Positions 1,706 through 51,922 of a DNA stretch of 64,000 bases are shown one piece after another. Source of the stretch: a bacterium (GTDB taxonomy: Bacteria > UBA6262 > WVXT01); the NCBI GenBank assembly GCA_035530055.1, contig DATKVN010000010.1, positions 6,344-70,343 of the forward strand, read 5' to 3'. Every line of letters begins with the position of its first letter. Position 1 is the first letter of the stretch. Made by a program: the position numbers and the translations under genes. Below the pieces are notes generated by a model that was given only the letters and a program-made list of their open reading frames with translations, ran no database searches and was not told where the DNA came from.

Positions 1706-1779
1706 GGGGACACAATACTTAATTATCTCACTTGAACCCCTTTCCCCGCATCCAGTCAATAATTGAGTATTGTGTCCCC
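1706..1779. repeat. Minimal inverted-repeat pair of the RAYT-associated family (GGGGACACAATACTTAATTAT ... ATAATTGAGTATTGTGTCCCC) with a 30-bp spacer
   Basis: Direct sequence match to the terminal inverted repeats of the RAYT element at 21330-22117. The arms extend to AATTCCGGGGACACAATAC / GTATTGTGTCCCCCGAATT. The element lies between the MFS start and the HEPN gene end. Confidence 0.7.
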
Positions 1780-1793
1780 CGAATTTATTAGAC

Positions 1794-2351
1794 TTATTTT
1801 AATCCCTTTATTAAACTTTCTATCGTATCAACAAAATCTATTGCATTTTTATAAACCTTTTCAGCATCTTTTTGCGCAATAACTGCATCGGCCTTATACT
1901 GTGCTGTATTTCTTTTGGATTTCGTGGCCCACATTCTATTAACATATTTCTCATCAAGCCTTTTTGCAGATTTTATCTTCTTGATGTCCTCTGATTCTAT
2001 AGCTTTTCCTTTGAAAACAAAATGATATTCTAAACCCTCGATAAGGCTTTCATGGCTTTGGGCTTTTATCCCTATTGCGGCCAACGCAGCTGTTGCCGCA
2101 TGAAACATTGCATAATATCCACAGCTTATAGTCCAATCATGTCCGATATAATCGGCACTTACTTTTAGTCTTTTCTTGCTCTCTTTATCTTCCGAAACCT
2201 CCATAAGCAAAGAACCTGTCTCAATATTATGCCTTGCTTTATCAACATGATATTTTACTAGTGCTGTAATCGTAGGGTCTACTTTTAAATCGCCATTATC
2301 AAAATAACCTTTTACTTTTATTTTTAGCATTTCTTTCTTCAAATCACTCAT
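1794..2351 (-). CDS. HEPN-domain protein (toxin-like partner of the wHTH-nucleotidyltransferase), variant motif
   Basis: About 185 aa from the internal start MSDLKK. Its ATG overlaps the upstream gene's stop as ATGA (2348-2351). It is homologous to the 8290-8742 protein. The C-terminal block KSKRNTAQYKADA sits where HEPN Rx4-6H is expected, with Y in place of H. Confidence 0.5.
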   Translation of the reverse strand: MSDLKKEMLKIKVKGYFDNGDLKVDPTITALVKYHVDKARHNIETGSLLMEVSEDKESKKRLKVSADYIGHDWTISCGYYAMFHAATAALAAIGIKAQSHESLIEGLEYHFVFKGKAIESEDIKKIKSAKRLDEKYVNRMWATKSKRNTAQYKADAVIAQKDAEKVYKNAIDFVDTIESLIKGLK

Positions 2352-2965
2352 TTTATTACCTCCAATATCAGTTCCCAAAATTTCTCTGCACCAAACAATA
2401 TTATTTTATTTTTTAAGATCTCCTTGGCTACATTATGCTCCTTATCTTTTAACATTGCTAATAAATTTGTTGGCTCAGAAACCAAAGGGTTTATTTCGAC
2501 ACCAAAACCTTTTGACAAGGCGACACATTCCATATCAATAATTTCATCATATTTCTTTTTTGAAGGGACAAGGATAAAAAGGTCGATATCACTTTTTTTA
2601 AAGTCGGTCCCTTTAGCCAAAGATCCAAATAGAACGACAGAAAGTAAGTTAAAATCTGTCTTTTTAGGTAACTCCGAAAGAAGCTTTTCAACTACAAAAA
2701 AAATCTTGTCTCTTTTCTTTAGAAAATCTTCAGCTATCTGATTTGATATTTTAACAAAGCTTGTTTTTACCTCTGGATTTTTATAGTTAGGCCTACAATA
2801 TTTACGGTTTGAACGCTGTTCAATAATTAAAATCTCTTTATCTTTCAATTCTTCAACTTGTCTGTACACATAACTGTAAGAAATGTTTGTTTTTGTAGCT
2901 AACTCGTTTATTGTAAATTGCGCATATACGTCATCATAGAATAGCTTTACTATTTTATCTTGCAT
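2348..2965 (-). CDS. Winged-HTH + minimal nucleotidyltransferase (MNT) fusion protein
   Basis: The N-terminal wHTH resembles a transcriptional regulator. The C-terminal Pol-beta-type NTase motif is LFGSLAKGTDFKKSDIDLFIL (GS-x9-13-DxD). An RBS GGAGG precedes the ATG at 2965. Confidence 0.7.
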   Translation of the reverse strand: MQDKIVKLFYDDVYAQFTINELATKTNISYSYVYRQVEELKDKEILIIEQRSNRKYCRPNYKNPEVKTSFVKISNQIAEDFLKKRDKIFFVVEKLLSELPKKTDFNLLSVVLFGSLAKGTDFKKSDIDLFILVPSKKKYDEIIDMECVALSKGFGVEINPLVSEPTNLLAMLKDKEHNVAKEILKNKIILFGAEKFWELILEVIK

Positions 2966-8109: not shown

Positions 8110-8292
8110 GGGACAGCGACCTATTTTTCTTTCTTGTTCGGATTCTAATTTTGGGGGCAGGTCTTGATTATTGAATAAAAAAGTCATTTTCCTCTGTTTC
8201 TTATCTAAACTAATTTTAGTATAAATGTAAAAAAGTAGCCTGTCCCCCTCTTCTTTTCCTACTTCTGTTAAATTAAATGGTCGCTGTCCCTA
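8110..8292. repeat. About 183-bp element bounded by a perfect 14-bp inverted repeat TAGGGACAGCGACC / GGTCGCTGTCCCTA
   Basis: The inverted repeat was seen directly. The same 14-mer recurs at 45811-45824. The right copy supplies the TAG stop of the 8290-8742 gene. Confidence 0.4.
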
Positions 8293-8742
8293 TTTTCTCG
8301 GATAATTTTTCTTAAGCCAATTAAGAATTATTTCTAAAAATCCTTCTGCCTCTTTAATCAACTCTACGGCTTCCAACCCTGAAATTCCACCAGCATAATC
8401 ATAATCGGTTATATTTCTCTTTGCCCTGCAGGAATCAAAATAATCTGCCAAATCATAATAATCTTTACCCATTATTTCTTTCATTGCTTGAAACACAGTA
8501 AAATGATGCCCTGCACCTTCTGGCTTATATCCCTTGCAATAAAGGAGAATTGTAGCTAATTGTAAGACAGCATTATAAGCAGTAACAAACTTTCTATCCG
8601 CAGAAAGACCCTTTACTTTTGCGTCTTTTATATCCCTCTTTACGAGTTCTAACAAATTGCCGATTTCTTTTTTAGATGTCTTATGCCGCCTTAACTTTCC
8701 TTGATTCAATAATTGCTTTAAGTGCATCATTATCTCCCACAA
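8290..8742 (-). CDS. HEPN-domain protein (second copy; partner of the wHTH-MNT at 8681-9283)
   Basis: 150 aa, homologous to the 1794-2351 protein with the same C-terminal block (CRAKRNITDYDYAGG). Its start overlaps the 3' end of the upstream MNT gene. Confidence 0.5.
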   Translation of the reverse strand: MWEIMMHLKQLLNQGKLRRHKTSKKEIGNLLELVKRDIKDAKVKGLSADRKFVTAYNAVLQLATILLYCKGYKPEGAGHHFTVFQAMKEIMGKDYYDLADYFDSCRAKRNITDYDYAGGISGLEAVELIKEAEGFLEIILNWLKKNYPRK

Positions 8743-9283
8743 TGAACATTTTCTTATCTTTTAAAACTGCCTTAAGAAAATGGTCTTTCTGTTTTAGCCT
8801 CTTTATAAATTCCTGCATAGGAAATACTGCATAGTTAATTTCACGCATTAATTCTCTCTTGGGCTTAGAAAGGATAGTTGAAAGTTCTCTTGAGGAGATA
8901 TCTCCTATTACCATTAAGTCAATATCGCTGGAAAGGCTTTCCCCTCCCTTTGCATAAGAACCATAGATAAAAGCGACTTTAATTCCATTTCCCTCAAGAT
9001 TATCTTTTAGAACTTTGGCAATCCCTACGCTCTTAAATAAGATATTCTTTAATTCTTCAAATATAGGACAGTTTCTGTTTACTTTATAATAGACGCGATT
9101 GCCCCGTGTGGTCTTTTCGATAAGACCAAGACTATGAAGTTTCTCTACCTCCCGTTGAACGCCTCTTATGGACTGGTGGGTAATTGCAGAAATTTCTCTT
9201 TGATAAAAGTTATCTCCGGGATTAAACAGGAATAATTTTAAAATCTCAACCCTTGCCTTTGAAGAAAAGAGTTTATCTATCAT
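8681..9283 (-). CDS. Winged-HTH + minimal nucleotidyltransferase fusion protein (second copy)
   Basis: wHTH (VEILKLFLFNPGDNFYQREISAITHQSIRGVQREV) plus NTase motif IYGSYAKGGESLSSDIDLMVI. The listed ORF begins with a TTG, so the start was moved to the ATG that begins MIDKLFSS. Confidence 0.65.
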   Translation of the reverse strand: MIDKLFSSKARVEILKLFLFNPGDNFYQREISAITHQSIRGVQREVEKLHSLGLIEKTTRGNRVYYKVNRNCPIFEELKNILFKSVGIAKVLKDNLEGNGIKVAFIYGSYAKGGESLSSDIDLMVIGDISSRELSTILSKPKRELMREINYAVFPMQEFIKRLKQKDHFLKAVLKDKKMFIVGDNDALKAIIESRKVKAA

Positions 9284-9303
9284 AAACTGCCTCCATATAC
9301 ATC

Positions 9304-9336
9304 TTGTAGTCAATTATATACAATTTGTAGTCAATT
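9304..9336. promoter_or_regulatory. Direct repeats TTGTAGTCAATT x2, 21 bp apart, upstream of the second wHTH-MNT gene
   Basis: Seen directly at 9304-9315 and 9325-9336. The 21-bp periodicity matches the TATCAC palindromes at the first copy. Confidence 0.4.
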
Positions 9337-9344
9337 GTCAAGCA

Positions 9345-9530
9345 AGTTCTGGGGCAAGTTCTGGGGACACAATACTTTGAAGTTCTGGGGACACAATACT
9401 TAATTATTCTTCTTTGGAACTATGGCATCTGCTCCTTCGTATAACACGCAGACTGAAGTCTGCGACTACTTTTCAAACGCAGACCAAGGTCTGCTACTCC
9501 AAACGCTCCGATGAATCGGAGCTACTCCTT
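9345..9530. repeat. Repeat cluster: three AGTTCTGGGG units, a solo RAYT-family left end (9387-9407), a conserved about 50-bp linker, and three short hairpins ending in CTACTCC
   Basis: GGGGACACAATACTTAATTAT at 9387-9407. Hairpins are GCAGACTGAAGTCTGC, GCAGACCAAGGTCTGC and CCGATGAATCGG, each followed by (G)CTACTCC. The same IR-plus-linker-plus-hairpin module occurs at 12989-13075. Confidence 0.8.
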
Positions 9531-9567: not shown

Positions 9568-9984
9568 CTACAAATGATAATCTCCAGCGGCTTCAGGCTG
9601 ATAAAGCACTTCCAGAACCTTCAACTTTCTCAATCCTGCTGGAACTTTCCATTCAATAACATCTCCGACTCGATATCCAATTAATGCGGTTCCAATTGGT
9701 GCTAGAATTGAAATTTTGTTTTGGTCAGGATTCGCATCGTCAGGAAAGACTAACCAATAAATCATTTCTTCCCGAGTATCTAAATCTTTGAGACGAACTT
9801 TGGAATTCATTGTAATTACATCTGTAGGAATTTCCTTTGATTTAACCACCTTACTTCGATTCAACTCTCCTTCTAATTTCTCTAGATATATTTCATGTTC
9901 ACTACCAAACGTTCTGGCTTCTCTTATTAATTGTTTTAATCGTTTCTTATCCAAATCAGTAATATAAATCACTTTCTCTTTCAT
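9568..9984 (-). CDS. GreA/GreB-family protein, Rnk-like (regulator of nucleoside diphosphate kinase)
   Basis: 138 aa. The C-terminus ILAPIGTALIGYRVGDVIEWKVPAG matches the GreA/B C-terminal FKBP-like domain, and the size fits Rnk. Confidence 0.7.
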   Translation of the reverse strand: MKEKVIYITDLDKKRLKQLIREARTFGSEHEIYLEKLEGELNRSKVVKSKEIPTDVITMNSKVRLKDLDTREEMIYWLVFPDDANPDQNKISILAPIGTALIGYRVGDVIEWKVPAGLRKLKVLEVLYQPEAAGDYHL

Positions 9985-9994
9985 GTTTGCTCCT

Positions 9995-10190
9995 GGGGAG
10001 ACAATACTTAATTATTCTTCTTGGGTACTGGTTTCCCCTTTTTTAATACCTTTCCGGTTATTTCCTCAAGTTCGTTGAAAAAGTTTTTCAACATCCAATA
10101 GTCCAGTCGTGTTTGCCTATTATTATATAGAAGATTTGGCAAAATTTTCAAAAGTCCAGCATCGGGTTCAATAATTAAGTATTGTGTCCC
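9995..10190. mobile_element. MITE (about 196 bp) derived from the RAYT element: terminal IRs GGGGAGACAATACTTAATTAT / ATAATTAAGTATTGTGTCCC
   Basis: The ends are inverted copies of the RAYT-element termini. The first roughly 60 bp match the RAYT 3' coding end (TCTTCTTGGGTACTGGTTTCCCC...). It is about 85% identical to the element at 13813-14005. It fills the gap between a response-regulator stop and the rnk-like start. Confidence 0.75.
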
Positions 10191-10210
10191 TGGAATTTTT
10201 CCCCGGAATT

Positions 10211-10582
10211 TTACCTTAAAACCGCCTTTATTTTCGCAATTACTTCCGATGAGTCAAAAGGTTTTATAAGAAACGTTTTGACCCCCACCGTATTCATAAG
10301 TTTAGCGTGTTCTTTTTCCACATAGAAGCCAGTCATACCAATAATAGGAATATTTGCAGTTTTGCGAAAGCGTTTCAGTTCAGAAGCAACGTGAAACCCG
10401 CTTTTCTTTCCCAACTTAAGGTCAAGCAATATGACATCCGGTTTTATCTTAGACACCATCTTTAGGGCAGATGTGCCATCGCTAAAGACCACAGTATCAT
10501 ACCCGGTCAAATTCAACAGCTCCTGAAGTTCTTCTAAGAACTCTTTATTATCGTCAATAACCATTATCTTCTTTTTTGCCAT
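10211..10582 (-). CDS. Single-domain response regulator (CheY-like receiver)
   Basis: 123 aa with D10/D11 and the phospho-acceptor region (ILLDLKL), and conserved T and K. Confidence 0.85.
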   Translation of the reverse strand: MAKKKIMVIDDNKEFLEELQELLNLTGYDTVVFSDGTSALKMVSKIKPDVILLDLKLGKKSGFHVASELKRFRKTANIPIIGMTGFYVEKEHAKLMNTVGVKTFLIKPFDSSEVIAKIKAVLR

Positions 10583-10647: not shown

Positions 10648-11046
10648 TTAAGCAGGGGCCTTACCTGATAGTTCTTTAATCTTGTTAAGCAATACTTCTA
10701 TATCGAAGGGTTTAATAATAATCCCATCAGCCAGCCTTAAAATGTTTTCCTCTTTATCTCCATAGATTCGCTCTCCCTGCAAGTTCTTGCTTAAAGGTCT
10801 TCCAGTTAAAATAATAACTTTAAGCTTCTTATTTTGTCCTTTTATGCTCTCTAAAATATCAAGTCCACTTAAACCGGGCATCTTGACATCCAGAATGAGA
10901 ATATCGTAATCATATTTTTCAACGAGCCTTTTCCCTCTTAAGCCATCAAATGCCGTAGTTACACGGTAGCCCTCATCTATCAGGATTTCTGCTATTTCTT
11001 CACACAGTTCTTCATCATCATCAAGCATAAGGATTTTCTTTTTCAT
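10648..11046 (-). CDS. Single-domain response regulator (CheY-like receiver)
   Basis: 132 aa (MLDDDEEL...ILILDVKMPGLSG). It overlaps the upstream kinase gene by 4 bp (ATGA). Confidence 0.85.
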   Translation of the reverse strand: MKKKILMLDDDEELCEEIAEILIDEGYRVTTAFDGLRGKRLVEKYDYDILILDVKMPGLSGLDILESIKGQNKKLKVIILTGRPLSKNLQGERIYGDKEENILRLADGIIIKPFDIEVLLNKIKELSGKAPA

Positions 11047-12965
11047 TTTGTTTCTCTTTCGATTGGCAGACTTACGGTTATACTTGTTCCTTTGCCTTTT
11101 TTACTCTTAATGTCTATTCTTCCACTGTGAAGATTGACTAATTCATTACAAATTGTAAGCCCCAGTCCTGTCCCCTTTGATTTCCTGGTAAAGAAAGGTT
11201 CAAATACTCTTTCCAAATCTTCTTTACCTATTCCCATTCCGTTATCCTTGAAGCTTATCTCAATGGAGCCCTTTCCATCATCCCTCGCCGATATTTCTAT
11301 TTTTCCCTTTTTGTTCGAGACAGATTGGTATGCATTAGTTAAAATATTATTGAATATCTCTCTAATCTGCAAAGGGTCTGCCTCAATAAGCTTCTTTTTT
11401 CTCGATTTAAATTTTTTGACTATAGAAACATTCTGCTTATGAAATCTTCTCTTCGTAAAAGTAATACATTCATTTAGAATATCGTAAATCTGTATCTTTT
11501 CATAACTGGGTATTTTTATCCGTGAATAATTTAAAAGATTATTTATAATCTGGCCGCTTTCCAATACCTTCTTTTCTATATTGTCAAGATGTTTATCTAG
11601 TAAGGAATTTTCTCTCTTTTTCCTTATATTATATGCGGCTATCTTGATAACTCCTAATGGATTACGCAGCTCGTGGGCGACAGTTGCGGCAAGAATGCCG
11701 AGGTCGGAGAGGCGCTTTGCCTTATCTAATTCCGCTTGCGTTTTAAATAATTCGTGAGTTTTTTCGCTTATAAGCTTCTCAAAGGTCTCTTTGTCTCTTT
11801 TTAAAACTTCCTCTGCGTGTTTGCGTTCGGTTATGTCCCGGACAACTCCGAGCATACGGATTGCCTTATTGTTTTTGTCACGGATGACATTGCCCGTTTC
11901 TGAAACCCAACGGACTGTGCTGCCATCAGGCCAAACAATACGATGCTCGATATCATAGTCCCTGCCCTTTTCTATGCAGGCATTTACTGAGTCGACAACG
12001 TGCTGTCGGTCCTCAGGATGAACACATTCAAGAAATGCCTCATAAGTTCCACCGAATTCTCCCCGACCAAACCCAAACATAGGCTCTATTGTATCAGACC
12101 ACTCCAGATTACCGGTTCGAATATCCCAATCCCAGCTACCGATATTTGCAGCCCGCTGGGCAAGCGCATAACGCTCTTCACTGAGCTTTAACGCGTCTTC
12201 CGCCCGCTTGCGCCTGGAAATGTCTATCACGCCGGCAATCGCTCCGGAATAATTTCCCTTACCATCAAAAACTGGCGCTGTTTCCAGAGTGGCATAGAGA
12301 CGTATTCCATCTTTTCTCAGGAACTCAAAATCGTGTTGTTCTTCGACACCCTCTTTACGTCGATTCAGAAAGTTTTGAGCAATCTCTACACCACGTTTAT
12401 CCATAAATGAAAATAGATGTTTTCCTATCATTTCATCTGTTGTGTATCCTAACATCTCAGTCATACGAGGATTAACAAACGTGGTATAAGAATCTTTATC
12501 GATAACCCAAATCCCTTCCTGTAAATTTTCAATGAGATGGCGATATTTCTCTTCGCTATACCTCAACGACTCCTCGGATTTTTTGCGCTGGGTGATGTCT
12601 GTCCTTAATTTTTCATTTACCCTCAAAAGCTCTGCCGTTTGTCCGTTAATCTTGATTTCCAGCTCTTCGTGATATCGTTGCAATAACTTCTCCTTCTTCT
12701 TGTTCTCAGCAATGTTACGGATAACTACTGATACCGTGAACAGCCCAACAATAATGATTATGACCATTTCCACTATTGACTCATGCCAGTTAAAGGGAGT
12801 TCTTATCCCTCCCGTTAGAAGGTAAGGTAAATCCAGGATTTCATCTAGCCACGTTAAGATACAAAGCATAACAAACCCGAGGGCGACAAGTAGCCACATT
12901 CTCTTGTTCACAATCGATACTTTTGGTCTGCTGCGATTCTCTTTGATTATTTCTTTCTGTTCCAT
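11043..12965 (-). CDS. Multi-PAS sensor histidine kinase
   Basis: 640 aa with an N-terminal TM region, two or three PAS/PAC segments, the H-box HELRNPLGVIK, and the N/G1/G2 boxes (NAYQSV, DNGMGIG, GTGLGLTIC). Confidence 0.9.
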   Translation of the reverse strand: MEQKEIIKENRSRPKVSIVNKRMWLLVALGFVMLCILTWLDEILDLPYLLTGGIRTPFNWHESIVEMVIIIIVGLFTVSVVIRNIAENKKKEKLLQRYHEELEIKINGQTAELLRVNEKLRTDITQRKKSEESLRYSEEKYRHLIENLQEGIWVIDKDSYTTFVNPRMTEMLGYTTDEMIGKHLFSFMDKRGVEIAQNFLNRRKEGVEEQHDFEFLRKDGIRLYATLETAPVFDGKGNYSGAIAGVIDISRRKRAEDALKLSEERYALAQRAANIGSWDWDIRTGNLEWSDTIEPMFGFGRGEFGGTYEAFLECVHPEDRQHVVDSVNACIEKGRDYDIEHRIVWPDGSTVRWVSETGNVIRDKNNKAIRMLGVVRDITERKHAEEVLKRDKETFEKLISEKTHELFKTQAELDKAKRLSDLGILAATVAHELRNPLGVIKIAAYNIRKKRENSLLDKHLDNIEKKVLESGQIINNLLNYSRIKIPSYEKIQIYDILNECITFTKRRFHKQNVSIVKKFKSRKKKLIEADPLQIREIFNNILTNAYQSVSNKKGKIEISARDDGKGSIEISFKDNGMGIGKEDLERVFEPFFTRKSKGTGLGLTICNELVNLHSGRIDIKSKKGKGTSITVSLPIERETK

Positions 12966-12988
12966 TTTAACCTCGAATTCTCAATTCT

Positions 12989-13075
12989 GGGGACACAATA
13001 CTTAATTATTCTTCAGAATTATGACATCCGCTCTTTCGTATAACACGCAGACTGAAGTCTGCTACTCCTTCCTTT
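12989..13075. repeat. Solo RAYT-family end (12989-13009), conserved linker and GCAGACTGAAGTCTGCTACTCC hairpin
   Basis: Near-identical to the 9387-9470 module. Confidence 0.8.
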
Positions 13076-13163
13076 CCAGAAGCCTCTCCCAGCTTTACCC
13101 AACACCAGCCGTGGGGTAGTTTGTAAGGCACTCTCATATCTTCCTTTTCAGTGCTTTTTTGTC

Positions 13164-13511
13164 TCATTTTTCCAAATCCTCAAATACCTTTTGGATAAGG
13201 GGTTTAATCATAGAGACATCTTTCTTAACAACCTCCCAGAGAATTTCCAGGTCAACTCCAAAATACTCATGAACCAGCCTGTCCCTCATTCCCGCCATCT
13301 TTTTCCAAGGAACTTCAGGATATTTTTCTCTAATTCTTTTTGGGATATTTTTTGTTGCTTCTCCAATTATCTCAATGGCGCGTACCACTGCATAAATCGT
13401 TTTCTTATCTTTTTTAAATTTATTGAAATTCATACCTTCAGTAAATTTTTCAATGTCATTTATAGAATCAAGAATGTCCTGAATGTAATCTCCATACTCT
13501 CGCTTTTTCAT
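13164..13511 (-). CDS. hepT: HepT-like HEPN toxin (DUF86), type VII toxin-antitoxin
   Basis: 115 aa with the canonical R-x4-H-x-Y motif (RDRLVHEY). It overlaps the mntA stop by 4 bp. Confidence 0.85.
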
Positions 13512-13804
13512 ATATAGACGACCTCCTGTAAGATATGTCTACCGATTCTTGGTTTTAATGCCTTTTTGGAGACAAGATCAACCTTTGCTCCCAATATTTT
13601 CATTAAGTACTCTTCTAGATCCATAAATTCAAAAAGACCTATGGGTTTCTCAAACTCTACAAGAATGTCTATGTCACTCTTTTTTTTCTGTTCATCTCTT
13701 ACAAATGAGCCAAAAATCCCTATCTCTTTCAATTTAAATCTTTTTTTCAGTTCTTGCTTGTGCTTCCTAAGTATATTTTCAATCTTTCTGCGGGTCATGG
13801 CCAT
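13508..13804 (-). CDS. mntA: MntA-like minimal nucleotidyltransferase antitoxin
   Basis: [22 protein letters not shown] matches the GS..DxD NTase motif. The listed start at 13822 lies inside the MITE, so the start is more likely Met7 or Met9 (MAMTRRK) near 13804. Confidence 0.8.
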
Positions 13805-13812
13805 ATAATTCT

Positions 13813-14005
13813 GGGGACACAATACTTAATTGTCTTACTCGCTCCCCTTTTCCCTTTTTAATATTCTTCCCACTATTTCCTCAAGTTTGTTGAAAAAATT
13901 TCTCAACATCCAATAGTCCAGGCGTGCTTGCCTATTGTTATATGGAAGATTTGGCAAAATTTTCAAAAGTCCAGCATCGGGTTCAATAATTAAGTATTGT
14001 GTCCC
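13813..14005. mobile_element. MITE (about 193 bp), second copy; IRs GGGGACACAATACTTAATTGT / ATAATTAAGTATTGTGTCCC
   Basis: Same structure as the 9995-10190 element. Its right IR provides the last codons (GHNT) and the TAA stop of the adjacent B12-radical SAM gene. Its left IR abuts the mntA start. Confidence 0.75.
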
Positions 14006-15279
14006 TGGGCCTTTCCCCGGGACTTTTTGGTATGATAACGACTCCCTAAATTTAATGAACTGTATAGTATTGGGTGACGCTTATTAGCCCAGAATCTTTT
14101 TATTATTGAAGGAAAAGAATCAAATTTATGTCTCGCCCAATGAAAACCTCCCAAAAGTTGGTCAGCAGTCATTCTTAAAGGTTCAAAAACAAGTTTAACA
14201 TTATCATATTTACTCCAATCGTAGCTAAATATTCTACCTTCCTTTTGTAAATCATTAAAGATTTTTGTCCCTGGGTAGGGCGTAAGTAAAACTAATTGTG
14301 CGAAAGCCACTCTAGATTCAATAAGAAACTCAACTGTCTCTTCAAAAATAGATTGATCATCACCATCAAAACCAAAAATTAAACTTACATAAATTAAAAT
14401 ACCTACATCCAGAAACATTTTTATAGCTTCTTTGATCTCTTCTTTACTCTTTAGATTTTTGTGATAACGATTTATTTCTTTAGTAGATACAGATTCTAGA
14501 CCAATAAAGAAACTACAGCAACCAGACTCAGAAGCTAATTTTAATAACTCCCTGTCTTTTACAATATTTATAGCTGATTGCCCTACCCATTTTTTATCCA
14601 TATATTTTAATTCTTTGAAAAGTTCCCTTGCATATTGTTTATTTCCTGTAATGTTGTCGTCTAAAAACATAAGATTTTTCCCTTTAATGGTGGAAATATC
14701 TTTAATTACTTCTTTTATTGGTTTATGCCGAGGACGTGGGCCAAAAAATTTTGTTACTGAACAAAAATCACAATTATAAGGACATCCACGAGTTGTCTCT
14801 ACTGGAACGAGGTTAATAACCCCTGCTTTTCTTTTAACTAAATCTCTTCTGGGTATTACGGAATTATTTAAAAGAGGAAATTCGCTTTTATAAAATTTTT
14901 TTAGCTTATTTTCCTGTACATCTTTTATAACACTATCCCAGATATTTTCTGCTTCTCCAATTACAACAGAATCAGTATATTTTATGGATTCATCCGGTAA
15001 AGTTGTGGGATGAATACCTCCAAGAATGGTCTTTATACCCCTTTCCCTGAACATTATTGATATTTCATAAGCTCTGGGAGCGGTTGCCGTCATGGTTGTT
15101 ATGCCCACCAAATCATATTTCTTGTCAAAATTAATTTTATCCCACGGTTCCTCTACTATTTCAATTTCATGTTCTGGAGGAGTTAATCCCGCCAGTACTG
15201 GCAAAGATAATTGAGGTATATGCAAATTTTTGTGACGATGTTCATCTTTAGGACATGGTGAAATAAATAATATTTTCAT
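13990..15279 (-). CDS. B12-binding domain radical SAM protein
   Basis: 429 aa with an N-terminal cobalamin-binding Rossmann segment (DLVGITTMTATA) and the radical SAM CxxxCxxC motif (CPYNCDFC). Confidence 0.85.
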   Translation of the reverse strand: MKILFISPCPKDEHRHKNLHIPQLSLPVLAGLTPPEHEIEIVEEPWDKINFDKKYDLVGITTMTATAPRAYEISIMFRERGIKTILGGIHPTTLPDESIKYTDSVVIGEAENIWDSVIKDVQENKLKKFYKSEFPLLNNSVIPRRDLVKRKAGVINLVPVETTRGCPYNCDFCSVTKFFGPRPRHKPIKEVIKDISTIKGKNLMFLDDNITGNKQYARELFKELKYMDKKWVGQSAINIVKDRELLKLASESGCCSFFIGLESVSTKEINRYHKNLKSKEEIKEAIKMFLDVGILIYVSLIFGFDGDDQSIFEETVEFLIESRVAFAQLVLLTPYPGTKIFNDLQKEGRIFSYDWSKYDNVKLVFEPLRMTADQLLGGFHWARHKFDSFPSIIKRFWANKRHPILYSSLNLGSRYHTKKSRGKAQGHNT

Positions 15280-15296
15280 TATAAACTCCTAATTAC

Positions 15297-15367
15297 GGGG
15301 ACACAATACTTAATTATGACGCAGGCTGAAGCCTGCGGCTACCGTTTCAAACGCAGACTGAAGTCTG
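15297..15367. repeat. Solo RAYT-family end (15297-15317) followed by GCAGGCTGAAGCCTGC and GCAGACTGAAGTCTGC hairpins
   Basis: Direct sequence match to the other family members. Confidence 0.8.
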
Positions 15368-17035
15368 CTATTCCTTCAGCGCTTTGGCGTTTTTTTCATA
15401 AAATGTAGAAGGCTCATAAACCTGACCGTTAGCAAGTTTTTTTGCCTCTCTTTTCATAGCAAAGTATAGCCCTCTGCCCAATAGTGAAGCCATTATCCTG
15501 GTTTTCCAACCGAACTCCTTGTATAAATCTTGAAGAAGTGAGATGATTTTCTTCGACATAAGTTCGTCTTTCCTGTACCATTTTTTTATCGCCCAAACTG
15601 CTCCCGTATAATAATCGATGGATTTTTTAATCTCCCATTCAAAACGATTACGAATACGTGGATCCGGATGGTTTTTGTATCTTTTCCATCCTATTAGCAT
15701 GGTTCGAATCATTCGGGCAATGCTGGGACCGTTTATCTCGAAGTCCTGACGAAAGGCTCTGAGAAGAAACTCGGTTTCCTGACCATTGTAAATGTGCTTA
15801 TGGCGATAATTAAAGCGGTATTGACCGTGTCTATCTGCGGTGGGACATTCTTCTTCAGACAAAAGACTTCCTTCCTTCAGGAGCTGTTCATGAAGAGGCG
15901 TGCCAGGAGCCGGGATGTACAGCATAAACTGGTGGAAGTCCGTATCATGACTAACTGCCCAATCTATAATTTGATCAATGTTTTCCGTAGTATGGTTTTC
16001 TAAACCGATAATAGTTGACCCCATAACGCGAATGCCATGTGATTGCATATCTTGTACAAACGAGTGGGTATCTATCCCTTTAAGCTTTGCATACTGACTG
16101 TTCTCACCTTCCAGTCCTATCCATACCCAGGAAATTCCCAAACCCACCAGCTGTTTGACTGTATAAAATTTCAGAGCCTTGACAGAACTGAAAACGAACA
16201 AAGACCAACTCTTATTGTGCTGTTCCATTAATTCTAACAACCTTAATGCTCTTTTATGATGTAGAAGAAAGTTTTCATCAAGGATGAAGAAAGACCGACT
16301 CTTGAGCTCTTTTTCAATCTGACACATAATGGAAAAAAGAGAATCTCCAGTTTCATAAAAGTTTATGAATTTCCCCTTACCACCAAATAGGGCAGAAGTG
16401 GAACAAAAATTACAGCCCACCGGGCATCCTACTGATGGTATTAAAATTGCAGCGGTATTTCTTTTTGAAAGAGTTATACCAAAAATACGGCCGCCAAATG
16501 CAGAAAGAACTATTGGATGTCTTACTGAAACGTTTTCATCCTGTCCCAGGAACCTTCGAAACCAGCTGACACCTTCTCCTTTGACAATATAATCCGCATC
16601 AATGATATTATGAATATTGGGTATACTGGCAATATGCCCGCCCACAACAATCGTTGCCTTAGGTAAGTATTTGCGTATCACCTCACACATCTTTTTTGCC
16701 TTCCCGATATTGGGAATAATTGAACTAATTCCAACAATATCATAAGAATGGCTTTGGATTTCATTGGTAAAACGGTCGAGGGTAGGAAAATCTAAAAGCG
16801 TACATGGCGCATCAATGTTTGCCTGAAGCAGCATCAATCCAAATGAACGATGGAACAGGCGAAGAGAAAAAGGACCTTGCTCCCGAGTAACCTGGTTATG
16901 ATAAAGTTCCATCGGGTTAATCTTTCGGCTTCCATATTCATCGTCTTGTGCGTAGGGGCCAAATACGCTGGATAATAAAACTTTAGCTTGAGACTTAAGT
17001 GGATGTACAGGATTACTTGTGTTCATAATATTCAT
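15368..17035 (-). CDS. B12-binding domain radical SAM protein (second, longer paralogous type)
   Basis: 555 aa with a B12-binding segment (DIVGISSIIPNIGKAK...VVGGHIASIP) and CPVGCNFC. Confidence 0.85.
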   Translation of the reverse strand: MNIMNTSNPVHPLKSQAKVLLSSVFGPYAQDDEYGSRKINPMELYHNQVTREQGPFSLRLFHRSFGLMLLQANIDAPCTLLDFPTLDRFTNEIQSHSYDIVGISSIIPNIGKAKKMCEVIRKYLPKATIVVGGHIASIPNIHNIIDADYIVKGEGVSWFRRFLGQDENVSVRHPIVLSAFGGRIFGITLSKRNTAAILIPSVGCPVGCNFCSTSALFGGKGKFINFYETGDSLFSIMCQIEKELKSRSFFILDENFLLHHKRALRLLELMEQHNKSWSLFVFSSVKALKFYTVKQLVGLGISWVWIGLEGENSQYAKLKGIDTHSFVQDMQSHGIRVMGSTIIGLENHTTENIDQIIDWAVSHDTDFHQFMLYIPAPGTPLHEQLLKEGSLLSEEECPTADRHGQYRFNYRHKHIYNGQETEFLLRAFRQDFEINGPSIARMIRTMLIGWKRYKNHPDPRIRNRFEWEIKKSIDYYTGAVWAIKKWYRKDELMSKKIISLLQDLYKEFGWKTRIMASLLGRGLYFAMKREAKKLANGQVYEPSTFYEKNAKALKE

Positions 17036-21251: not shown

Positions 21252-21329
21252 TTTATTGTACCTTTGCTAACATTATACAAGTTTATTCATAAAAGTAAAG
21301 TAAATTTTGTGAGTTCTGGGGTGAGTTCT

Positions 21330-22117
21330 GGGGACACAATACTTAATTATTATTCTTGGGTCCTGGTTTCCCCTTTTTTAATACCTTTCCGGTTATTTCC
21401 TCAAGTTTAGTAATAAATTTATCATCACCTAAAGGTCGACCGGTGCGGGCATGTTCTCTGAAGAGATTCCTATCTATGTCTCTATCGTCTTCAGCAAGAT
21501 ATGATGACCAGTCTTCTATTTCTGAAAGCATAAAGTTATCAGAAAGTAAAATATCCTTTTCTTTCAGAACATGAGCTTTCGCACTCGACCAAGGGTAATC
21601 TTCAGCCCTTTTCACTAACCCTGCTCTTACTGGATTCCGTTCAACATAACGGACAGCCGCATAAAGATACTGCTCGTCCAATGGATAAGATATAAATCGC
21701 CCCTGCCACAGATATCCCCTCCACCCTTCACGGAAATTAATCATGCGGGTATAGTATCTGTGTACCTGACCTATTCCCCTCGCTAAACTGTCTTCATTCT
21801 TGGGGACAGCTATTAAATGCACATGATTATCCATCAAACAATATGCCCAGAAAATTACACCAGCTTCTATGGCATGCTTATATAGAAGATTAATGTAGGA
21901 TTTCTTATCTTGGTCGCTGAAGAATACATTCTGAGAGCGATTGCCACGTTGGATAATATGATGAGGATAGTTAAGTATGACGATACGTGCTATTCGTGCC
22001 ATGACATAATTCTAACAAATCAAGTATCAGAAATCAATAATTAAGTATTGTATCCCGGAAACTGGTGGGACGGAACTGGTGGGGCGAAACTGGTGGATAA
22101 TTAAGTATTGTGTCCCC
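21330..22117. mobile_element. REP-associated tyrosine transposase (RAYT / IS200-like) element with 21-bp terminal inverted repeats and a duplicated right end
   Basis: Left IR GGGGACACAATACTTAATTAT (21330-21350). Right IRs at 22036-22056 (degenerate) and 22097-22117, separated by three GAACTGGTGGG units. It is preceded by the GAGTTCTGGGG x2 micro-duplication. Confidence 0.8.
21343..22002 (-). CDS. REP-associated tyrosine transposase (IS200/IS605 TnpA-like, HuH)
   Basis: 219 aa with the HuH motif (MDNHVHLIAVP) and conserved Y in the YYTRMINF region. The architecture matches RAYT/Y1 transposases. The stop codon lies inside the left IR. Confidence 0.85.
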   Translation of the reverse strand: MARIARIVILNYPHHIIQRGNRSQNVFFSDQDKKSYINLLYKHAIEAGVIFWAYCLMDNHVHLIAVPKNEDSLARGIGQVHRYYTRMINFREGWRGYLWQGRFISYPLDEQYLYAAVRYVERNPVRAGLVKRAEDYPWSSAKAHVLKEKDILLSDNFMLSEIEDWSSYLAEDDRDIDRNLFREHARTGRPLGDDKFITKLEEITGKVLKKGKPGPKNNN

Positions 22118-32610: not shown

Positions 32611-32780
32611 AAACCCAACCTTCACTTGAAAGTTGGGACTGAAGCCTTATGAATTCGGCCAACCCTCCCGCGAAGGCACTATATTGCAAACAGGTTCTCG
32701 GACTTGCTTCTGTTAAGAAGCTCACCGTTGCGGGGCAGTGTCCGGTTTTCACGGACTTCCCCTATTTACATAAAAAATAT
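32611..32780 (-). promoter_or_regulatory. Cobalamin (AdoCbl) riboswitch with terminator-type expression platform
   Basis: Minus-strand RNA reads GGGGAAGUCCGUGAAAACCGGACACUGCCCCGCAACGGUGAGC ... AAGUCCGAGAACCUGUUUGC (B12-box-like), then the terminator CCCAACUUUCAAGUGAAGGUUGGG + UUUUUU ending 22 nt before the cobU ATG. Confidence 0.8.
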
Positions 32781-32787
32781 TTAATTT

Positions 32788-32818
32788 ATTCTACTATATA
32801 TGCTCTTCCTCTGTCAAG
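32788..32818 (-). promoter_or_regulatory. Sigma70-like promoter for the riboswitch-cob/btu operon
   Basis: Minus-strand TTGACA (32813-32818), a 19-nt spacer, then TAGAAT (32788-32793). The spacer is one or two nt longer than optimal. Confidence 0.4.
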
Positions 32819-51446: not shown

Positions 51447-51630
51447 ACAAAATTTTTGGTATTTCCTTGTTTTTTATCTTATATCTTTTTGGAAAAAAAG
51501 TCAATATTCCCAAATAATAACTGGTAGTCAGGGACTTCATCTTTTGGAGTCCTCCCGAAAGGGAGGAAAGACCCCCTATTTCATCGGGGGAACCCAGAAG
51601 TTGCGGTTACTAAATAATAAAATAGAAAGG

Positions 51631-51922
51631 CTTGAAATGAACCTGTAAGCCGAATCCTGTATTCCGACTACAAATCGGAACGATGGTTATTTATCTAAGC
51701 GACCAACCCATAGAGTAGTAACGAGACGGGCCGTCTCTCCTCTGCTATTCGGTCTTGCTCCGAGTGGGGTTTAGCCTTTTCACTACAGCATTACCTGTAC
51801 CTGGTTTCTGTGCCACTTTCCGTAGGATCGCTCCCCTTCCGTTTACACGGAACACCCTGCCCTGTGGAGTTCGGACTTTCCTCTCCGATAAATATCGGAG
51901 CAACCATCCGGTTCACTTCAAA
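51631..51922 (-). ncRNA. rnpB: RNase P RNA, bacterial type A, compact
   Basis: Minus strand reads GAAGUGAACC...AGGAAAGUCCGAACUCCACAGGGCAGGGUG...GGAAAGUGCCACAGAAA...AAACCCCACUCGGAGCAAGACCGAAUAG...ACGGCCCGUC...CGCUUAGAUAAAUAACC...GGCUUACAGGUUCAUUUC. The P1 helix pairs 5' GAAGUGAACC with 3' GGUUCAUUUC. Confidence 0.85.

Follow-up and report, generated by a model that had tools for sequence, protein, structure and literature searches.

A miniature element, probably derived from a TIRtron, at the ends of a radical SAM gene and an mntA-hepT pair

In a 64,000-nt stretch of bacterial DNA (lineage UBA6262, contig DATKVN010000010.1; hereafter the window), a 192-bp element lies at 13814-14005 between the 3' end of a B12-binding radical SAM gene and the start of mntA, the antitoxin gene of an mntA-hepT pair. 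Taking the account as a whole, we consider it quite probable that this is a non-autonomous derivative of a TIRtron, i.e., of a unit in which the gene of a Y1/HUH transposase lies between terminal inverted repeats (TIRs), and that it bears on the two neighbouring gene ends as described below. The coordinates of all features are collected in Table 1.

Results

Repeats and interior of the element

The element is flanked by a perfect 18-nt inverted repeat, GGGACACAATACTTAATT and AATTAAGTATTGTGTCCC. Its arms (13814-13831 and 13988-14005) are 100% complementary, are spaced by 156 nt and can be lengthened to 20 nt at the cost of one mismatch. Allowing for up to three mismatches, the 18-mer is found 12 times in the window, compared to 0.05 expected copies, and none of 100 shuffled sequences reaches this number. 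The first-pass annotation of this DNA had proposed a miniature inverted-repeat element at this place, which is borne out. All copies, which number 13 in this tally, are located between 1.7 and 22.1 kb of the window; the remaining 42 kb are without any.

The 192-bp unit aligns end to end in three copies with about 88-96% identity, namely 13814-14005, 9996-10190 and positions 316-507 of a related contig (L126). Beside the left arm, the interior shares homology with the 3' end of the Y1 gene in a gene-bearing unit at 21331-22116, with about 70% identity in the 13814-14005 copy and about 93% over 78 nt in the copy at 9996-10190. The remnant open reading frame (ORF) 13835..13966 ends with FFNKLEEIVGRILKREKGSE before its stop, its counterpart in the intact Y1 gene with KFITKLEEITGKVLKKGKPGPKNNN. 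No target-site duplication flanks the copies 13814-14005, 9996-10190 and 1707-1778, i.e., their flanks share no direct repeat.

The repeat also has a conserved outer side. When the base composition of 160 copies is taken position by position, the consensus of the 7 nt adjoining the core on its outer side is AATTCYG, and this 7-mer is repeated within 40 nt at 55 of the 160 copies, compared to about 11 expected; that is, the repetition is family-wide. To the right of the element, AAAGTCCCGGGGAAAGGCCCA (14006-14026) follows the pattern of a tandem 7-mer plus GGGGA seen outside the repeat at other window copies, and it resembles AAAATTCCGGGGAAAAATTCCA outside the 9996-10190 copy as well as AAATTCCGGGGAAATTCCG outside the copy at 1707. 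Such tandem 7-mers, often together with a partial GGGGA(CAC), were observed in the window at 1688-1706, 9356-9387, 10191-10212, 14006-14026 and 21310-21330 and at many loci. They might be footprints of cleavage and rejoining, or additional binding sites.

Family identity

The TIRs of the gene-bearing unit are found at 21331-21348 on the plus strand and at 22039-22056 and 22099-22116 on the minus strand. The stop codon of its Y1 gene is part of the TTAA of its own left TIR, i.e., of the repeat core read from the opposite side. The right end is doubled, with one mismatch in the copy at 22039-22056, and between the two ends (22057-22098) there are about three tandem copies of a 13-14-nt unit similar to CCACCAGTTTCGCCC, of which a related contig (L053) has more.

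The Y1 protein scores above the cut-off of the Pfam model Y1_Tnp (IS200-like, E=4e-10) and below that of the NCBIfam model REP_Tyr_transpos (NF047646; 62.3 bits, E=4.5e-17, cut-off 80). Its closest solved structure is E. coli TnpAREP (PDB 4ER8, E=2e-4). A Pfam scan (E<=0.01) gave Y1_Tnp only and no C-terminal domain like helix-turn-helix (Bac_DnaA_C, HTH_23 or HTH_28-like), no profile-profile or structural search for such a domain having been made. The motifs DNHVH, LWQGRF and RYVERNP match TnpAY1 subclass 2.1 when compared by eye, i.e., not with the authors' hidden Markov models, to Table 1 of PMC6006769; the tyrosine motif YVERNP departs from the subclass pattern at one non-key position. For this subclass, the motif listing of PMC6006769 gives NHVH/NH[YF]H, W[EQ] and YIELNP / Y[IV]HLNP as key motifs. 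Membership in IS200/IS605 is excluded by the tyrosine motif (YVERNP, not Y...Q) and by the presence of TIRs.

Genes resembling those of REP-associated tyrosine transposases (RAYTs; REP, repetitive extragenic palindrome) that are flanked by TIRs with the common motif GGGGWSAS are introduced in PMC3733652 as TIRYTs, and the respective units as TIRtrons. In its treatment of the subclasses, PMC6006769 regards TnpAY1 subclass 2.1 and the TIRYTs that Di Nocera et al. described as one and the same group, to which RAYT group 1 of Bertels et al. 2017 (PMC5581495) also corresponds. Together with its preceding G, the repeat studied here reads GGGGACAC, which fits GGGGWSAS at the outer end.

The miniature element and the gene-bearing unit have identical 18-mers and a homologous interior. 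Since the Y1 gene lies between the same repeats and the interior is homologous to the 3' end of that gene, the element at 13814-14005 is, judged by homology, a deletion derivative of a TIRtron that would work like a miniature transposable element with inverted repeats (MITE) or like a REPIN, i.e., an inverted REP dimer. The kind, i.e., TIRYT/TIRtron repeats, is known and barely studied. Within the literature searched, only two papers mention these repeats, and a full-text search for the repeat sequence gave no match.

The end of the radical SAM gene

Read on the minus strand in the frame of ORF 13990..15279, the right arm gives G GGA CAC AAT ACT TAA, i.e., the residues G-H-N-T and the stop codon lie inside the repeat, as the first-pass annotation had stated. 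From this reading frame, the stop and the last four codons are certainly encoded by the element. About six more codons are probably element-encoded as well, which amounts to about ten residues (SRGKAQGHNT) in all.

A C-terminal alignment places the end of the conserved core at HPILYSSLNLGSRYHT (ending NLGSRYHT) in all close relatives. Beyond this point, the proteins of the window and of two relatives (P0001 and P0002; 97-98% identity, 429 aa) end with KKSRGKAQGHNT and carry the repeat. A third relative (P0003; 95% identity, 432 aa) ends with HNKKMESSGDTILNY, where the stretch SSGDTILNY is the same repeat in another frame; its contig (L003) ends 5 nt later. The proteins P0004 (87% identity, 427 aa, tail YNKKMQRDAC) and P0005 (83% identity, 432 aa, tail RNRKMIIGSNNDSSF) come from contigs in which the repeat is absent.

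Since orthologues without the element match the window protein in length (427 and 432 vs 429 aa) and have unrelated tails, the gene is not truncated. Probably, a non-conserved tail (ancestrally of about 10-15 residues) was exchanged after the conserved core for one of similar length. The option of a truncation, raised in the first-pass annotation, thus does not agree with these orthologues, in which length and core are kept. Conversely, the element does more than abut the gene, because stop and tail are element sequence.

The contigs of P0001 and P0002 carry an identical junction and shorter, internally deleted elements of 96 bp (L124) and 93 bp (L125). The insertion thus predates the split of these lineages.

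With regard to the radical SAM gene on L126 (517-1683), a unit of REP hairpin plus repeat replaces the last ~40 residues (RFWANKR followed by LQSACYTKEQMP and the stop). This gene also shows a 75-nt internal deletion, encodes 388 aa without a B12-binding match and is possibly decaying.

The start of mntA

The two genes downstream belong to the MntA-HepT type VII pairs at family level only, the Pfam models NTP_transf_2/Polbeta and HepT-like scoring above their cut-offs and the NCBIfam equivalog models scoring 48 compared to a cut-off of 60. The left arm starts 9 nt upstream of the annotated mntA ATG (13804-13802, 98-aa ORF). All 16 close MntA homologues (16/16, 92-97% identical) have 96 aa and a start equivalent to the ATG at 13798-13796, and the L126 MntA matches the window ORF with 98% identity from residue 3 of the latter onwards, the upstream ATG at 13804 adding the residues MA. 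Because all close homologues are of that length and the identity to L126 begins at residue 3, the true start is most likely the ATG at 13798, 15 nt from the arm. The distance of 9 bp in the first-pass annotation is thus right with respect to the ATG at 13804, which in the window is created by a T-to-A change, and probably not with respect to the real start. Seven of the nine bases between the arm and this upstream ATG (AATTCTG, 13807-13813) fit the outer repeat extension AATTCYG.

In other contexts, the usual layout upstream of mntA is a repeat in the same orientation, CAGAACT, a leader of 15-25 nt with AAAGGAGG, TTTGTGGCC and a GTG start. It is found in five contexts (L126 and L133 to L136) with the repeat about 35 nt upstream of mntA; in a sixth (L127-L132), the leader is kept and the repeat is a decayed relic. 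The leader in the other contexts carries AAGGAGG. The window instead reads repeat, CAGAATTAT, ATGGCC and ATG. When aligned with the six contexts, it shows a 20-column gap that removes the Shine-Dalgarno sequence AAAGGAGG, as well as an ATG start instead of GTG. Neighbouring genes have clear Shine-Dalgarno sequences (AGGAG for the radical SAM gene, AGGAGG for hepT, AGGAG for a GreA-like gene, GAGG for a kinase gene).

From this alignment, the ribosome-binding site of mntA is genuinely missing, and its loss comes from a deletion of about 20 nt and not from a fresh insertion, because the repeat is the normal upstream neighbour of this cassette elsewhere. The first-pass annotation had the promoter or ribosome-binding site probably displaced by the left arm; the binding site is indeed gone, with the deletion between repeat and start as the cause. 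The change from GTG to ATG may be compensatory for the lost site.

Stop, folding and transcription signals

Of the three frames that enter the repeat from its outer side, two meet a stop within 24 nt (TAA at offset 13; TGA at offset 21 if ATTATTGA follows); the third is open for 58 codons in the 13814-14005 copy. We assessed 179 exact copies from the window and from loci of other genomes. An open frame of at least 100 codons enters the repeat in 31 of them, of which five end at the repeat's TAA (the window, L018, L029, L098 and L107) and two at the TGA. That is, a repeat-supplied stop is recurrent but uncommon.

A promoter and terminator scan of 12900-14200 found, on the minus strand inside the element, neither a sigma-70-like promoter nor an intrinsic-terminator-like site, and its site counts were not above those of shuffled sequences. 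Thus, with regard to the portable stop and terminator cassette suggested in the first-pass annotation, the stop holds for two of three frames and is used by five of the 179 copies, but no sense-strand terminator was found. In the RNA fold, the two arms pair in a stem of about 19 bp (minimum free energy -61.2 kcal/mol, z=-2.9).

On the plus strand, 14004-14021 looks like a terminator, i.e., a hairpin with a T-run after it (CCTGGGCCTTTCCCCGGG ACTTTTTGG). This match, which is one of pattern only, stems from the outer tandem motif and is antisense to the radical SAM gene. When the whole window was scanned with Rfam, no match lay at or near the element; the matches elsewhere are an RNase P RNA, two tRNAs and a cobalamin riboswitch, of which the riboswitch and the bacterial RNase P RNA are placed at 32673-32808 and 51630-51919.

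Stability and distribution

Among samples of JGI, ENA and Logan, 18 contigs show the order of radical SAM gene, 185-nt gap, mntA, hepT and a 53-aa ORF, and in 7/7 contigs checked, the 281 nt over the element and both junctions are base-identical. As the arrangement recurs across many samples with identical junctions, it is not an assembly artefact. The window DNA is 94-96% identical to contigs of a metagenome-assembled genome (MAG) labelled Clostridia bacterium 1244-F3-H4-B3 (WJOT01).

To describe the wider distribution, we used a 20-mer survey of one genome per species for exact copies of GGGACACAATACTTAATTAT, which gave at least 120 stretches that are exact by construction. Among the matches listed, the hosts are MAGs of more than 10 phyla, i.e., Omnitrophota, Clostridia, Desulfobacterota, Gamma-, Alpha- and Zetaproteobacteria, Actinomycetes, Planctomycetes (including Scalindua rubra), Nitrospirae, SAR324, Aminicenantes and Spirochaetota, in addition to the genome of Nitrosomonas aestuarii Nm36 and an assembly of Ca. 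Thiomargarita nelsonii. The Y1 proteins beside the listed copies are only 46-70% identical to that of the window. On these comparisons, the repeat core is far better conserved than the Y1 enzyme, with the caveat that exact copies were the search target. Since such a search fixes the exactness of the core, the informative part is the taxonomic spread together with the divergence of Y1.

Table 1. Features of the window discussed in the text (positions in the window; strand "." where none applies).
Feature	Position	Strand	Remarks
72-bp mini element	1707..1778	.	two TIRs and a 36-nt spacer
Partial TIR, solo TIR, three GTAG-REP hairpins	9364..9530	+	upstream of a nucleotidyltransferase/HEPN gene pair
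Second full copy of the miniature element	9996..10190	.	between GreA/Rnk-like and response-regulator genes
Solo TIR (12990-13007), Y1 5'-leader relic, GTAG-REP hairpin (13047-13062), miaB-like fragment	12990..13085	+	downstream of hepT, upstream of a histidine kinase gene
hepT, HEPN RNase toxin	13164..13511	-	own AGGAGG; Pfam HepT-like E=2e-34; overlaps the mntA stop by 4 nt
mntA, nucleotidyltransferase antitoxin	13508..13798	-	Pfam NTP_transf_2, Polbeta; likely start ATG 13798
Outer 7-mer AATTCTG (extended TIR, consensus AATTCYG)	13807..13813	+	position-wise composition of 160 copies
Miniature element, TIR to TIR, 192 bp	13814..14005	.	putative internally deleted TIRtron derivative; perfect arms, full-length alignment to two other copies
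Left TIR	13814..13831	+	adjoins mntA
Putative remnant of the Y1 transposase gene 3' end	13832..13908	-	DNA alignment to 21349-21427; inside remnant ORF 13835..13966
Right TIR	13988..14005	-	source of the radical SAM residues G-H-N-T and of the TAA stop codon (13990-13992)
B12-binding radical SAM gene, 429 aa	13990..15279	-	Pfam PF02310, PF04055; last ~10 codons and stop element-derived (outer six probable)
Outer tandem motif AAAGTCCCGGGGAAAGGCCCA	14006..14026	-	probably encodes (K)SRGKAQ of the radical SAM tail; resemblance to outer flanks of other copies
Solo TIR and two GTAG-REP hairpins	15298..15368	+	between two radical SAM genes
Intact TIRtron with Y1/HUH transposase gene 21343..22002 (219 aa), inverted TIRs on both sides	21331..22116	-	Pfam Y1_Tnp E=4e-10

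Other copies and their surroundings

The 72-bp mini element folds as single-stranded DNA with -20.8 kcal/mol (z=-6.2). Canonical GTAG REP hairpins stand beside solo repeats, with GTAGCAGACTTCAGTCTGC at 13047-13065 and others at 9448, 15321 and 15353. These units of REP and repeat sit upstream of genes and in gene orientation (hairpin spans 9448-9530, 13047-13066 and 15321-15368). Two lone GTAG hairpins (41803 and 52000) are distant from any repeat. A fragment of the 5' region of a miaB-like gene, GAGAGGCTTCTGGAAAGGAAGG (13063-13085 in the window), travels with the REP-plus-repeat unit.

Three nucleotidyltransferase/HEPN gene pairs are found within 14 kb (1794..2965, 8290..9313 and 13164..13804), each directly beside a repeat copy; the same holds for L126 and L107. 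In related contigs, L107 for example, repeats occur at nearly every gene boundary.

In L124, a GreA/Rnk-like gene (626-1060) lies between a LigD_N-like gene and the pyruvate kinase gene. Its window counterpart (9568..9984, 90% identical) is 10 kb away and abuts the second miniature copy; the site equivalent to that in L124 (19931-19964) is empty. The AGGAG ribosome-binding site of the window gene is formed at the very outer edge of the repeat. The histidine kinase at 11043..12965 is 88% identical to that at 7208-9100 of L124 only from residue 123 on. The N-termini are unrelated (122 aa in the window, 319 aa in L124), and the break adjoins the REP-plus-repeat unit.

Discussion

Alternative explanations

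The two repeats could also be the abutting ends of repeat-bounded gene cassettes, i.e., portable sites of recombination or cleavage in the manner of integrons, with the apparent MITE as a by-product; an exchange of cassettes along the repeats might also complement the TIRtron account. Such a view would account for mntA-hepT (94-98% amino acid identity) being found in at least six neighbourhoods (the window, L126 and L127-L136) with a repeat or its relic about 35 nt upstream in the same orientation, for the three same-orientation repeats in L136 that separate DUF5661, mntA-hepT and a methyltransferase, and for the repeats at the gene boundaries of L107. It also agrees with L124 and L125, which hold the repeat pair without the cassette and differ in the 5' region of the kinase gene, and with the miaB-like fragment that moves along with the unit of REP and TIR. 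On the other hand, the 192-bp unit recurs discretely at unrelated sites (9996-10190 and L126 316-507) with about 88-96% identity, and the element is also present in L124 and L125, where there is no cassette. This discrete recurrence and the presence without cassette mark it as an element in its own right. Furthermore, no cassette circle or defined recombination point was shown, and homologous recombination between dispersed repeats fits the pattern equally. We therefore regard the cassette explanation as unlikely.

With regard to known repeat classes, a canonical REP/REPIN family is suggested by the RAYT-like Y1 gene (NCBIfam E=4.5e-17, nearest structure 4ER8), by repeat dimers that fold as long hairpins and by the GTAG hairpins adjoining several repeats. 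We hold it for very unlikely, since the repeat itself lacks a 5' GT[AG]G and is not palindromic (the 18-mer folds as single-stranded DNA with -2.1 kcal/mol), the RAYT equivalog score of 62 stays below the cut-off of 80, the account of subclass 2.1 in PMC6006769 does not associate it with REPs, and the core is common to many phyla and not lineage-specific. That is, failing the definition by GTAG and hairpin refutes REP membership; a REPIN-like mechanism is unaffected. A classical MITE derived from an insertion sequence with DDE transposase (IS630/Tc1 or IS5 type) would likewise be short, multi-copy, without coding capacity and bounded by TIRs. It is highly improbable nonetheless, because no copy shows a target-site duplication, nothing but a gene of Y1/HUH type was found between these repeats, in the window as well as in other phyla, and the interior derives from the Y1 gene. 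Finally, short-read assemblies often misjoin at repeats, and L003 does end 5 nt after the repeat; given 12 copies compared to 0.05 expected and identical junctions in at least seven independent samples, the chance of a random inverted repeat or an assembly chimera is negligible.

Several points weigh against the TIRtron account as given. Insertion and excision are read from lineages with and without the element that differ by 3-17% in protein, and no transposition event was seen. The papers mentioning TIRYTs report no biochemical test of TIRYT activity on such repeats. The match of 14006-14026 to the outer motif of the element covers about 20/26 positions with two indels. In L003 (P0003, 95% identical), the repeat is found at a slightly different junction and in another frame; in an alignment of the window with L003, L001 and L002, L003 keeps HNKKME before the repeat, whereas the window has KK and then the outer motif. 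The history at the radical SAM end is thus either two insertions, or one insertion and a later rearrangement. Moreover, the promoter part of the scan covered sigma-70-type consensus sites only.

Proposed history

A TIRtron copy would have lost its inner part, leaving the pair of repeats and about 75 bp from the 3' end of the transposase gene. The comparisons show that the copy went to fixation in the lineage of the window where the radical SAM gene ends, and that its TTAA core provides the TAA stop and the last four codons; the outer tandem motif probably adds about six further ones. As neither a sense-strand terminator nor an inward promoter was found, transcription of mntA-hepT presumably comes from the radical SAM gene by read-through over the element. 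The translation of mntA may now lean on the stronger ATG start. Copies would be mobilised in trans by the Y1 enzyme via a single-stranded DNA hairpin of two repeats and without target duplication, in the way presumed for REPINs and RAYTs.

Relation to known systems

MITE- and REP-like repeats such as RPE, NEMIS/Correia, ERIC and RUP are located near or inside coding sequences, are co-transcribed and alter a gene terminus or the expression of a neighbour. They are families of their own, and the stop codon in the present case is provided by the TTAA core of a repeat of Y1 type. Examples of repeats that remodel gene ends, in part from the background of PMC3733652, are the Rickettsia RPEs, which are inserted in frame, as well as NEMIS/Correia, ERIC and RUP.

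Compared to the TIRtrons as characterised in the relevant sections of PMC3733652, PMC6006769 and PMC5581495, we find the same RAYT-like Y1/HUH gene between long inverted repeats that start with GGGGWSAS (here GGGGACAC), a 3' repeat overlapping the gene end, repeats scattered singly, as dimers and in clusters, the protein motifs NHVH, WQ and Y[IV]ExNP, and a wide, patchy taxonomic spread. What these sections describe is a shared motif of 8 nt only, with copy numbers that are moderate. In the present case, MAGs from more than 10 phyla carry the entire 20-nt core as an exact match. In addition, there is the conserved and often tandem outer AATTCYG, a 192-bp derivative with part of the transposase gene and the combination with GTAG REPs.

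With the REPIN-RAYT system (Bertels and Rainey 2011, PMC3116915), the element shares non-autonomous inverted dimers that form a long single-stranded DNA hairpin, an intergenic location without target duplication and the presumed mobilisation by a Y1 enzyme that acts in trans and whose gene is itself flanked by copies of that repeat. It differs by the lack of a GTAG-tagged palindromic unit, by a cross-phylum repeat and by a transposase of a more IS-like group. IS200/IS605 elements have a Y1/HUH transposase, a probable single-stranded DNA chemistry and no target duplication in common with it, but they are described in PMC6006769, as far as its overview of the group goes, with subterminal hairpins instead of TIRs, Y...Q instead of Y...NP and often tnpB.

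Meaning

The effects on the gene ends are probably ordinary and largely neutral, as may be expected of a repeat family with which the intergenic gaps of this genome are filled. At the locus itself the impact is small, i.e., the conserved core of the radical SAM protein is kept, and the toxin-antitoxin pair is intact and stable in many samples. Still, the locus is a clean, dated example of a Y1-type repeat that gives a gene its stop codon and a protein its tail. It also shows how an antitoxin gene can lose its ribosome-binding site through a deletion beside such a repeat, a loss that the change from GTG to ATG apparently balances.

More interesting than the locus are a repeat core that stays invariant from phylum to phylum, the tandem 7-mers on its outer side and the association with cassettes. 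One might go further and see in the 25-27-nt repeat (AATTCYG plus GGGACACAATACTTAATTAT) the recognition site of a horizontally spreading Y1/HUH system that also moves adjacent cassettes, such as mntA-hepT with one repeat. We consider this quite unlikely. If true, it would be a cassette-exchange system based on an HUH tyrosine enzyme and not on an integrase, with a site that is invariant over more than 10 phyla and an enzyme that has diverged to 46-70% identity.

Of wider value is the family itself, for which the window and its relatives show an intact gene next to deletion derivatives, mini dimers and solo ends, as well as associations with cassettes and a repeat core conserved far more than the protein. 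This makes it a good starting point for biochemistry on an unstudied branch of HUH enzymes.

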